Positions 11,899 to 13,884 of a DNA stretch of 22,823 nt are shown piece after piece. The translations under genes and the position numbers were made by a program. Numbering within the stretch: position 1 is the first letter of the stretch; the number at the start of each line of letters is the position of its first letter. The DNA lies in assembly GCA_049301335.1 (NCBI GenBank), contig JBAQKV010000030.1, positions 1-22,823 on the forward strand. The letters are read 5' to 3'. The notes beneath the pieces were generated by a model. That model did not search any database, was not told where the DNA came from, and saw only the letters and a list, made by a program, of their open reading frames with translations. This DNA comes from Patescibacteria group bacterium (GTDB lineage: Bacteria; Patescibacteriota; Gracilibacteria; BD1-5; UBA2023).

Positions 11899-12234
11899 AT
11901 GAACGCGAAACAAAAATCGGCACGGGTCGCCTATTTCGCCTGGAGGCAAGTTGGGAATTCCACGATTATCCACCTCCCCCAATACGACGTATCGCACCTG
12001 CGGGAAACCGTGCTCCGGTCGATCGACCAGAAATCACGGCTCCGGATACCGAACCACCTGCCGCTCATAAAGGACCTCTGCCAAGGGGACCCGCGCAACC
12101 AACGCCTGCATCTCGTCAAAGACGGCCAAACCGTAATCGCGGTCGCCCTCGACGAAGACATCCGGCAAGAATTGCGCCACCAGGGGGCGACCCCGTTGAG
12201 CAAGGCATTCACGCACAAGATCGTTTCGGTTTGA
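11899..12234 (+). CDS. small basic protein, paralog P1 (111 aa to the TGA), possibly SpoVT/AbrB-like fold, function unknown
   Basis: ATG preceded by GAAAGGGAAAGAAG. It is paralogous to 19108..19467: LPQYDVSHLRETVLRSIDQKSRLRIPNHLPLIKDL versus LPRYDVSKVKLGVLNNIGKTPRLRIPRHMEYIKDL. The 3' end is uncertain because the only stop-like codon is TGA (12232-12234), which is followed by a terminator. Confidence 0.6.
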   Translation: MNAKQKSARVAYFAWRQVGNSTIIHLPQYDVSHLRETVLRSIDQKSRLRIPNHLPLIKDLCQGDPRNQRLHLVKDGQTVIAVALDEDIRQELRHQGATPLSKAFTHKIVSV

Positions 12235-12249
12235 ATTCCGTACGGTCCC

Positions 12250-12275
12250 AAAGGCTCCGAGAGGGGCCTTTTTTT
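12250..12275 (+). terminator. intrinsic terminator after P1
   Basis: AGGCTCC-gaga-GGGGCCT followed by TTTTTTT. The A-run/GC-stem/T-run style matches the other terminators in the window. Confidence 0.65.
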
Positions 12276-12302
12276 GATATTCCGGGCATTTTGGATTAGA
12301 AT
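12274..12302 (+). promoter_or_regulatory. promoter of orphan gene A (TTGATA, 17 nt, TAGAATCGGCA)
   Basis: TTGATA at 12274-12279 and TAGAAT at 12297-12302. The -10 and downstream 5 nt (TAGAATCGGCA) are identical to the P1 promoter. Confidence 0.55.
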
Positions 12303-12345
12303 CGGCAAGTCAACCGGATGGTACCGATCTAAAAGCCGACCAACA

Positions 12346-13272
12346 ATGGACGTTTCCCAGTTTGAAAAATTCGCCGAAGAAGCTTCGAAAAGCTCCTCGT
12401 CCGTGTCCGCCGTAATCGGCGACGCCAGTCTCGCCGCCCTCGTCCGAACGGCCGAAGACCCGAACGTCCCCTTCGAAGAAATCAACGAGCGCATCCGCAG
12501 TCTCGTCATCACGGCCAAGAAAAACCGCGACTGGAAATGGATGAAAGCCCTCGCGAGCGGGAATTTCGAATACCTCGATTCCCTCGACGTCCCGATGAAG
12601 TCAAAAGACGCCAGCGTCACTCCGCTCGCTGCGGTCGCCGCGAACGCGAAGAAGGCGTCGGTACCCGCCTGGATAGTGGCGTATGCCAAACTCACGCTCT
12701 CGCTCAAGGAAAATTGCGAATCGTTCCTCGCTTGCGAATCCATCGACTTCACGTTCGACCCGTTGGTCATGAGGCTCATCAAACGGGAATCCGAAATCCG
12801 GAAGGAGGGTTCGAAAAAACTCACCAAAGTCGCTCACGTCGCCCCTATCAAATTCACGGCGGACGCGGTGGCGATATTGGAAAAGGAAGTCCGCGATTCC
12901 ATTCCGCACGTTACCCGGAATCCGGCGTTCTTCCTCCTTCTCGCCGGCTACGAAACCCTGCACGCCAACGGATACCGTCCGGCGTTCTTCCGCAACGACG
13001 CTTCCCTCAAGGTCACGTACCTCGACCTCGTCCAAGCGTTGCTCGAACTCTTCCCGGAAGACGCCCGCCCGGACGTGCACGAATACCTCGCGCAATTCCG
13101 GAGTTCGGGGGACGAAATCGATTTCCGATCTTCCCTCATGAGCCGCATCACGTACGAAGGCGACATGGAACGCATGGTCGATCGCGGCAGGCGGCGGCAG
13201 GCGGCCGTAGACGGCCTGATGGCCCGGATCAAAACGGCCATCGGCGAAAAAGCCGAGAGCTGAGAAGAATAA
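12346..13272 (+). CDS. hypothetical protein A (308 aa under table 25), no recognised domain
   Basis: Long ORF with host-like composition. ATG 12346 (MDVSQFEKF...) is the first ATG after the predicted promoter. The 3' end reads ...EKAES-TGA-GAA-GAA-TAA, so it ends at 13263 under the standard code or 13272 under table 25. Confidence 0.6.
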
Positions 13273-13300
13273 TTGACAATCCGAATCCGTTCAGCACAAT
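13273..13300 (+). promoter_or_regulatory. promoter of paralog B (TTGACAATC, 16 nt, CACAAT)
   Basis: TTGACA at 13273-13278 (same TTGACAATC nonamer as at 11820 and 19034) and CACAAT at 13295-13300. Confidence 0.45.
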
Positions 13301-13344
13301 CCCTTCCGGCAAATTCGCCCACAACGAACCGGAAGGGATTTTCC

Positions 13345-13884
13345 ATGGCCAAGGCCGACAAAAAACAAAAGCCGTTCTCGTGGTTTTTCGGCGACAACCG
13401 CGTCCGAAACATCCGCATCCCCGAATTCGACGTCGAATTCATGAGCGCTTCCAAGCTCGACGCCATCGCGAACGCCCCCCAGAAAACCCAACCGGAGCAC
13501 GCGAAATGGCTGGGCGAATACGCGGGGACGCGCATCCTGGTCGAACGCAAAGAAGGCGACGAATACGCGGCCGCCGTCTATTCGTTCGACGAAGAGGCTT
13601 CCAAGCTGCTCATGGCCGCCGGTGCGAAGTTCGTCCGCCTGACCTCCTTCCCCATAACGGGACAGATGGTTTCGGCACAGGACGAACGGCTCGATACGGT
13701 CATGCGGCTCCGCGAGGAAGTCGGACTCCCCTGCCGGACGGTTTCCCGTCCGCAATCGGAAGTCGTCGTCGCGCATTCCGGCAAACGCAAGGCGCGCAAA
13801 CAGAAACAGCGCGGCCAATCGCAATCGCAAGAAAAAGCGATTCTCGCCTACTTCGAAGCCAGGGGTTCCCGCCCCCGTGCGTAA
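13345..13884 (+). CDS. basic protein, paralog B (179 aa): P1/P2-like N-terminal half plus Lys/Arg/Gln-rich C-terminal extension
   Basis: ATG 13345 is preceded by GGAAGGG. Similarity to P1/P2 includes NIRIPEFDVEFM..LDAI versus IIHLPQYDVSHL..LRSI, and TRILVERKEGDEYAAAVYSFDEEASKLLMAAGA versus TRILIQGSGHGPSYVIALDWEVMFMLERAGA. Stop is TAA. Confidence 0.6.
   Translation: MAKADKKQKPFSWFFGDNRVRNIRIPEFDVEFMSASKLDAIANAPQKTQPEHAKWLGEYAGTRILVERKEGDEYAAAVYSFDEEASKLLMAAGAKFVRLTSFPITGQMVSAQDERLDTVMRLREEVGLPCRTVSRPQSEVVVAHSGKRKARKQKQRGQSQSQEKAILAYFEARGSRPRA

Follow-up and report, generated by a model that had tools for sequence, protein, structure and literature searches.

A clade-restricted family of small basic proteins whose genes mostly end in TGA, in Patescibacteria that read UGA as glycine

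Contig JBAQKV010000030.1 of assembly GCA_049301335.1, from a Patescibacteria group bacterium, was analysed over positions 1 to 22,823; this whole stretch of 22,823 nt, with a G+C content of 58%, is termed the window. It carries three genes, P1, B and P2, for small basic proteins of one family, together with a fourth, ORF305, between P1 and B. Genes of the family mostly end in TGA, a codon that the same genome evidently reads as glycine. At NCBI P1 is WA194_01890, ORF305 is WA194_01895, B is WA194_01900 and P2 is WA194_01925; P1, B and P2 are each labelled ‘hypothetical protein’. A first-pass annotation of this DNA had called the same three open reading frames (ORFs); their positions hold, but the ends that it gave for P1 and P2 are those of translation table 11, TGA being a glycine codon here. 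The genes of the locus are these:

murA, 9746–11011, minus strand
hrcA, 11069–11767, minus strand
P1, 11899..12234, plus strand: 111 codons, then TGA (12232–12234)
ORF305, 12346..13272, plus strand: an acidic protein of 308 aa; TGA at 13261 is sense and the stop is TAA
B, 13345..13884, plus strand: 179 aa, comprising the family core, a conserved helix and a basic tail, with a TAA end in the window
Gene for a DUF2339 membrane protein, between B and the TSP3 gene, minus strand, convergent with B
Gene for a thrombospondin-type-3-repeat (TSP3) protein, between the DUF2339 gene and P2, minus strand
P2, 19108..19467, plus strand: 119 codons, then TGA (19465–19467); the most divergent of the three between strains
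ftsK, 3′ neighbour of P2, minus strand, convergent with P2

The closest genome, CAYZVC010000001.1 (a contig of 783 kb recorded as ‘uncultured Candidatus Peribacteria bacterium’), is fully syntenic with the window at ∼91–92% DNA identity. The gene order P1-ORF305-B is conserved in relatives, and ORF305 sits between P1 and B in all relatives with a contig that spans this position.

To judge from conserved residues and ortholog comparisons, the genome uses genetic code 25, in which UGA encodes glycine, as the first-pass annotation had proposed. Sense TGA codons occupy the Walker-A glycine of TsaE (GDLgAGKT), the FGE glycine of a cNMP-binding protein and glycines of the calcium-binding repeats of the TSP3 protein (DxDGxGDxCD), and hrcA and ftsK can be read through only with TGA as sense (example positions: 8011–8493, plus strand; 401–901, minus strand; 11375–11377; 17274–19040, minus strand). 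Among three related strains TGA exchanges with GGA, GGC, GGG or GGT in orthologs of murA, hrcA, the TSP3 gene and ftsK; these swaps are frequent between strains that are ∼92% identical, so TGA usage appears to be evolving actively rather than frozen. The gene prfB, for release factor 2 (RF2), was not found in any BD1-5 genome (PMC6851277), nor was it seen within the window or the fetched loci of relatives, where tRNA-Gly(UCA) and tmRNA genes were likewise absent. The G+C content of the window exceeds the range of 0.21–0.53 quoted for UGA=Gly lineages (PMC8629427). Since the record gives ORF305 a length of 305 aa, up to a TGA (and P1 one of 111 aa), the deposited annotation evidently used table 11. 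Such an annotation splits many genes (hrcA, the TSP3 gene and ftsK would be among them), hides the missing stops and gives P1, B and P2 an ordinary appearance.

The codon at the C-terminal end of homology was tabulated for 22 family genes from the window and from loci L001, L005, L007, L008 and L010–L016; these genes represent more than 10 loci and include members only 25–48% identical. The end codon is TGA in 16, TAA in four and TAG in two (73/18/9%). P1 ends ...KIVSV-TGA and P2 ends ...PKAS-TGA. A P1-type TGA end is present in six of eight lineages, one of them only 48% identical, and the TGA of P1 is kept in its orthologs in L001, L007, L008, L005 and L010; the ftsK-adjacent members P0020 and P0009 (25–41% identity) have TGA ends too. 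For B, which has TAA in the window, the same codon is TGA in L001 and L007, and homology also ends at TGA in L008 (a divergent, shorter B) and in L011/L012. The codon that is TGA at the end of P2 in the window is TGG in L001, where a TAG stands four codons earlier.

None of this extends to the surrounding genes. The other 13 genes of the window stop at TAA (eight) or TAG (five) and never at TGA, and when 10 of these 13 were followed across four strains, none of 37 stops was TGA, with TAA and TAG swapping freely. The stop of ORF305 is always TAA or TAG; TGAs near its end align with TGG, CGG or CCG, and an internal TGA of ORF305 in L008 aligns with a glycine codon. The 2852 codons of the family hold no internal TGA, compared with eight in 4758 codons of other genes (3.9 expected in the family, P about 0.02 with relatedness ignored).

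Downstream of the TGA, transcription is predicted to end before any usable stop. All 15 TGA-ending genes with available downstream sequence have a hairpin (folding free energy, dG, −9 to −18 kcal/mol) and a T-run that ends 41–108 nt past the TGA, and in none of the 15, P1 and P2 included, does an in-frame TAA or TAG fall between the TGA and the T-run. The 16th, in L010, was excluded from this count as its contig stops 13 nt after the TGA. Among relatives the hairpins change in sequence and keep their pairing. Given that UGA is read as glycine and that code-25 bacteria reportedly lack RF2, most mRNAs of the family would contain no stop codon before their 3′ end. Selenocysteine insertion directed by a selenocysteine insertion sequence (SECIS) element was considered and rejected, because each hairpin belongs to a T-run terminator with no stop beyond it, and orthologs carry TAA, TAG or TGG at the codon and never one for cysteine.

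The predicted transcription and leader signals of the four genes are as follows; promoters and terminators alike are sequence predictions.

P1 promoter, 11817..11846, plus strand: GATTTGACAATC, 15-nt spacer, TAGAAT, with an exact TTGACAATC at 11820
P1 intrinsic terminator, 12250..12275, plus strand: 9-bp stem, GAGA loop, T7, dG −13.1
ORF305 promoter, 12274..12302, plus strand: TTGATA-17-TAGAAT
B promoter, 13273..13300, plus strand: TTGACAATC, 16-nt spacer, CACAAT
B leader hairpin, 13303..13343, plus strand: 11–12 bp, with the Shine-Dalgarno-like sequence GGAAGGGA within its 3′ arm
Bidirectional intrinsic terminator of B and the convergent DUF2339 gene, 13901..13936, both strands: 11-bp stem on the plus strand, also scored on the minus strand
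P2 promoter, 19031..19060, plus strand: GATTTGACAATC, 15-nt spacer, TAGAAT
Bidirectional intrinsic terminator of P2 and the convergent ftsK, 19503..19527, both strands: dG −16.5

The window contains three exact copies of the 9-mer TTGACAATC, one before each of P1, B and P2 at the −35 position and none elsewhere, and the three strongest plus-strand intrinsic terminators in 8000–22823 are those that follow the same three genes. These predicted sites agree with the earlier claim that each paralog has its private promoter and terminator. The shared palindromes proposed along with them do not hold up: TTGACAATC is a −35 hexamer plus ATC, with no real palindrome, and symmetry is limited to GATT-N4-AATC at P1 and P2. 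The P1 terminator keeps its structure with a different sequence in L001, L007, L008 and L005. The leader hairpin of B (dG −13.6) is about as stable as its composition predicts (z about −1); its pairing is kept in L008.

A divergent promoter-like site of hrcA, TTGTCA-16-TACAAT on the minus strand at 11826–11799, overlaps the P1 promoter. The two promoters would use GATTTGACAATC back to back (11799–11846), which may explain its partial symmetry. Short GC-rich hairpins stand at the predicted 5′ transcript starts of P1 (ACGGCC-CAAGA-GGCCGT, 11847–11872, plus strand) and P2 (CGGCA-ATCC-TGCCG, 19067–19080, plus strand), and hairpins resembling CGGCA...TGCCG are also found upstream of family genes in L011, L015 and L016. 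Further strong bidirectional terminators lie at 233–258 (after a tRNA-Ala gene), at 2948–2967 and at 8519–8538, the last between tsaE and a PrsW-like gene, both of which end in TAA. Elsewhere in the window, three consecutive minus-strand genes at 3008–5716 encode type IV pilin-like N-termini (e.g. FTMIELMVAIVVF and GFSLVELMVVLAIV), and one of the three contains a sense TGA.

Pairwise alignment makes P1, B and P2 true paralogs, as the first-pass annotation had held. BLASTP gives E=1e-14 for P1-P2 (35% identity over 86 aa), 2e-7 for P2-B and 0.002 for P1-B; Smith–Waterman scores set against 1000 shuffles, a control that the same annotation had called for, give z = 21.3, 10.9 and 3.2 for the same pairs; the similarity is well above chance. 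A profile built without any B-type sequence recovers B at 53 bits. The motifs listed earlier (h-h-h-P-x-[YF]-D-V, R-L-R-I-P-x-H, ALD-x-E and G-A) are conserved columns in an alignment of 24 members. Family members are typically ∼110 aa long, with a disordered Lys/Arg-rich N-terminus; P1, B and P2 are all basic (isoelectric point, pI, 9.8–10.1), and the C-terminal tail described for B is indeed ∼80 aa long and basic (pI 10.9). Ratios of nonsynonymous to synonymous polymorphism (pN/pS) of 0.14–0.48 against orthologs, alongside the substitution ratios (dN/dS) given below, mark the three as real coding genes, again as first claimed, under purifying selection. The notion that they are not real genes was ruled out by dN/dS below 1 and by conservation at the protein level down to 25–48% identity.

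None of the searches assigned the family to a known one. Scans of Pfam, NCBIfam and PHROGs gave no match for P1, B, P2 or ORF305. The 24 aligned members, searched one by one against Pfam, gave only single, unrelated weak matches, and a profile search of PDB sequences returned nothing beyond two chance matches at E about 1. Direct reading of the sequences showed no GGQ motif. AlphaFold2 monomer models were made, that of P1 from the 24-sequence alignment. The P1 model is confident (predicted local distance difference test score, pLDDT, 85.2; predicted template modelling score, pTM, 0.74), and the P2 model (pLDDT 73.5) agrees with it. From N- to C-terminus the P1 model runs beta-hairpin, strand, two helices, beta-hairpin, helix and final strand, with three helices (36–43, 54–60 and 86–94) packed on a mixed sheet. 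Foldseek searches with the P1 and P2 models found no PDB match better than E=0.35, the best TM-scores being 0.31–0.35, and nothing below E=0.13 in BFVD for P1; over all these searches the best E-values were 0.13–0.39. The weak matches that did appear are generic ferredoxin-like domains (beta-alpha-beta-beta-alpha-beta; HMA, PII, RRM, acylphosphatase), which share the strand and helix order of the core. The family differs from them in an extra N-terminal hairpin and helix, and their functional motifs are missing from it. As modelled, the family has an alpha/beta fold without a recognisable known relative, and the earlier statement that it cannot be placed in a named family is in keeping with every profile and structure search.

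A likeness to the SpoVT/AbrB (MazE/MraZ) swapped-hairpin fold had also been suggested, which would make the proteins DNA-binding regulators acting on the TTGACAATC sites. The resemblance lies in small size, possible DNA binding and a basic R-x-x-I-P-like motif, since R-L-R-I-P-x-H followed by I-K-D-L loosely recalls AbrB-type loops; the proteins are basic, and one exact 9-mer is common to the three promoters. We consider this reading very unlikely. Neither PF04014 nor PF02381 matches any of the 24 members at E<=5, and the profile search of PDB sequences gave no support. In the alpha/beta model with its three helices, RLRIPxH forms a loop between two helices rather than a beta-hairpin, and no AbrB, MazE or MraZ structure is among the 50 best-ranked Foldseek PDB matches. 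DNA binding through some other fold is possible.

Relatives are few and closely grouped. For P2, a word-indexed search through 5.8 billion proteins turned up no more than eight clusters, and an exhaustive profile search of 1.84 billion representatives gave 19 matches, of which four are repeat-protein artefacts, leaving ∼15 true clusters of 104–183 aa. All contigs read belong to relatives with the same neighbourhood, either murA-hrcA-P1-ORF305-(P)-B or P2 adjoining ftsK. The close strains read (L001, L007 and L008/L009) have exactly three copies each at syntenic loci, as in the window. No relatives were found in viral contigs, INPHARED phages or PLSDB plasmids, so an origin in a phage or other mobile element is rejected, and a scan of JGI metagenomes with the P1 alignment found nothing. 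By these searches the family is confined to a single clade of UGA=Gly Patescibacteria (Gracilibacteria-like). ORF305 has only 11 homolog clusters among the 5.8 billion proteins, all unnamed or ‘hypothetical’. In one relative, the ERZ1426830 contig (ENA; L015, 733–1062), P1-ORF305 abuts the 3′ end of ftsK and the segment with B, the DUF2339 gene, the TSP3 gene and P2 is missing; the stretch from hrcA to ftsK would thus be a variable region with family genes at its borders.

Compared with the syntenic relative, this region shows 90–99% identity, the exceptions being ORF305 (41–75%) and P2 (62–73%). Protein identity, nonsynonymous divergence (dN) and dN/dS were compared across four strains, with these results for protein identity:

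murA and ftsK: 94–99%, with dN/dS 0.02–0.08 and dN at most 0.04
P1: 65–94%
B: 67–96%
P2: 59–89%
ORF305: 49–81%, the most divergent gene of the region, with its C-terminal half better conserved

For P1, B, P2 and ORF305 jointly dN/dS is 0.12–0.57 and dN reaches 0.2–0.45 (up to 0.45 in ORF305). By this measure the four genes evolve ∼10 times faster than the neighbouring murA and ftsK. The nearest relative also varies by gene, the P2 of the window being closest to that of L008, and its P1 and B closest to those of L001; some exchange of alleles has probably taken place among the fast-evolving genes. A role of the family and ORF305 in a conflict system (toxin–antitoxin, defence or host-interaction effectors) would account for the fast evolution. 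It is favoured by the contrast in dN and dN/dS with murA and ftsK, by the incongruent allele similarities and by the conserved P1-ORF305-B order. Being a statement about function, it is compatible with the explanation of the gene ends that we prefer below. Even so it seems unlikely: Pfam, NCBIfam and PHROG matches give no lead (PADLOC was not searched), there are no phage, plasmid or viral-contig relatives, no signal peptide is present, the genes form separate transcription units and not an operon, and dN/dS stays below 1. Taken as a whole, the first-pass account stands as regards the paralogs, their motifs and their private promoters and terminators; its AbrB fold is not supported and its palindromes do not hold, and it overlooked both the glycine-TGA ends and the islands of divergence formed by the family and ORF305.

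For the TGA ends themselves, we tentatively prefer the reading that P1, B and P2 are co-regulated small basic proteins made from stop-less mRNAs, with their abundance set through ribosome rescue. Each family gene would be transcribed alone, from a common type of promoter (TTGACAATC ... TAGAAT), with a Shine-Dalgarno-like site and a strong intrinsic terminator at whose hairpin transcription would end. The ribosome would decode UGA as glycine, continue for ∼13–35 codons to the end of the terminated transcript and there need rescue. While trans-translation works, the product would be SsrA-tagged and degraded; once trans-translation is saturated, it would accumulate. The precedent is brfA of Bacillus subtilis, in which a rho-independent terminator lies inside the ORF and the protein, translated from a non-stop mRNA, is SsrA-tagged; arfA of Escherichia coli behaves likewise (PMC6881298). 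As in those cases, the gene encodes a small basic protein and a terminator or processing hairpin precedes any usable stop, and the product would be tied to trans-translation as well (PMC6881298). The stop-less state arises differently, from codon reassignment (TGA=Gly) and not from a hairpin inside a longer ORF, and a quarter of the family has a normal stop. What the proteins do is a guess: their charge, size and basic tails would suit nucleic-acid or ribosome binding.

Several observations weigh against this rescue-controlled reading. Between the TGA and the T-run, the other two frames contain 0 and 3 stops in 271 codons; stops are thus rare in all three frames, and this test, which for that reason had no power, gives no sign of selection against in-frame stops. 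Close orthologs make up many of the 22 genes, which lowers the number of independent observations to perhaps 8–10. Six of the 22 members have a normal TAA or TAG at the same place, and protein function therefore does not require a stop-less message. The family has no homology to ArfA or BrfA (no Pfam or NCBIfam match) and no similarity to them in fold. ArfA and BrfA are 55–72 aa long, and a family of 110–180 aa with 3–4 paralogs per genome is unlike the known rescue factors. ArfA and BrfA also depend on RF2, a factor reportedly missing from code-25 bacteria, and without RF2 a cell could not use that route of rescue.

The main rival is that P1, B and P2 are ordinary lineage-specific small proteins whose terminal TGA is a tolerated accident, adding a short glycine-led tail before release by some rescue route; we regard this as somewhat unlikely. 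The mix of TGA, TAA and TAG at one position looks like near-neutral drift, and its 73/18/9% proportions resemble the stop-codon usage of GC-rich standard-code genomes. Beyond the TGA the tail shows no conservation at the protein level, that of L008 being wholly different from that of the window. If TGA ends were simply tolerated, their absence from every other gene examined (0/37 stops across strains, 0/13 in the window) would be hard to explain, as would the persistence of TGA in three paralog lineages down to 25–48% identity when a single G-to-A change gives TAA; stop-less mRNAs from strong promoters would moreover be costly. A different answer gives UGA two meanings, glycine inside genes and an effective stop just before the transcript end or hairpin, so that P1 and P2 would end as table 11 has them. 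The position of the TGA exactly at the end of homology, its swaps with TAA and TAG in orthologs and the avoidance of internal TGA by the family all fit, and position-dependent stops exist in the ciliate Condylostoma magnum, where a codon is likewise sense inside genes and marks the ORF end near the transcript end (PMC5062323). That case is eukaryotic, genome-wide and based on eRF1, whereas here a single bacterial family is concerned, in cells not expected to have a release factor for UGA. The TGA is followed by A, T or C, with no conserved base. To our knowledge position-dependent termination, known only from ciliates, has no bacterial precedent, which also counts against it. UGA is not among the codons recognised by RF1, and BD1-5 genomes reportedly have no RF2 (PMC6851277); we take dual meaning to be quite improbable.

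With a similarly small chance of being right, the family may in effect follow the standard code (it lacks internal TGA and has a stop usage like that of a GC-rich table-11 genome), with the fate of the proteins reporting how UGA is read: readthrough of UGA would get them tagged and degraded, and they would be released intact if UGA decoding fails or a UGA release factor appears, for example one borne by a phage. The least credible proposal is that reading through the TGA of P1 fuses it with ORF305 into a protein of 457 aa, or that ribosomes crossing the hairpin suppress termination and so tie the transcription of ORF305 to translation of P1. The two ORFs do share a frame in the window, L001 and L007, with no TAA or TAG between them. 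In L008, L005 and the ERZ1426830 contig the frames differ, so the fusion is rejected; the spacer, moreover, carries a conserved terminator and a near-consensus promoter. Coupling by antitermination is rejected in turn, since B and P2 have the same TGA end and face convergent genes.

Stop-codon reassignment is usually regarded as complete, and once UGA means glycine it should close no gene. In this case about three-quarters of the genes of a conserved, strongly promoted family finish on the reassigned codon, at which the other genes examined never end. P1, B and P2 belong to a new, clade-restricted and fast-evolving family, and ending in a codon that is read as an amino acid is its striking feature. 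If UGA instead terminates at these ends, this would be the first case in bacteria of a stop codon that depends on position; if protein fate reports the reading of UGA, the family would be a built-in sensor of the state of the genetic code or of ribosome-rescue capacity. If the messages are truly stop-less, the family would be a natural case of gene control via ribosome rescue created by a change in the genetic code, and it would also offer a handle on how recoded bacteria treat leftover UGA ends.

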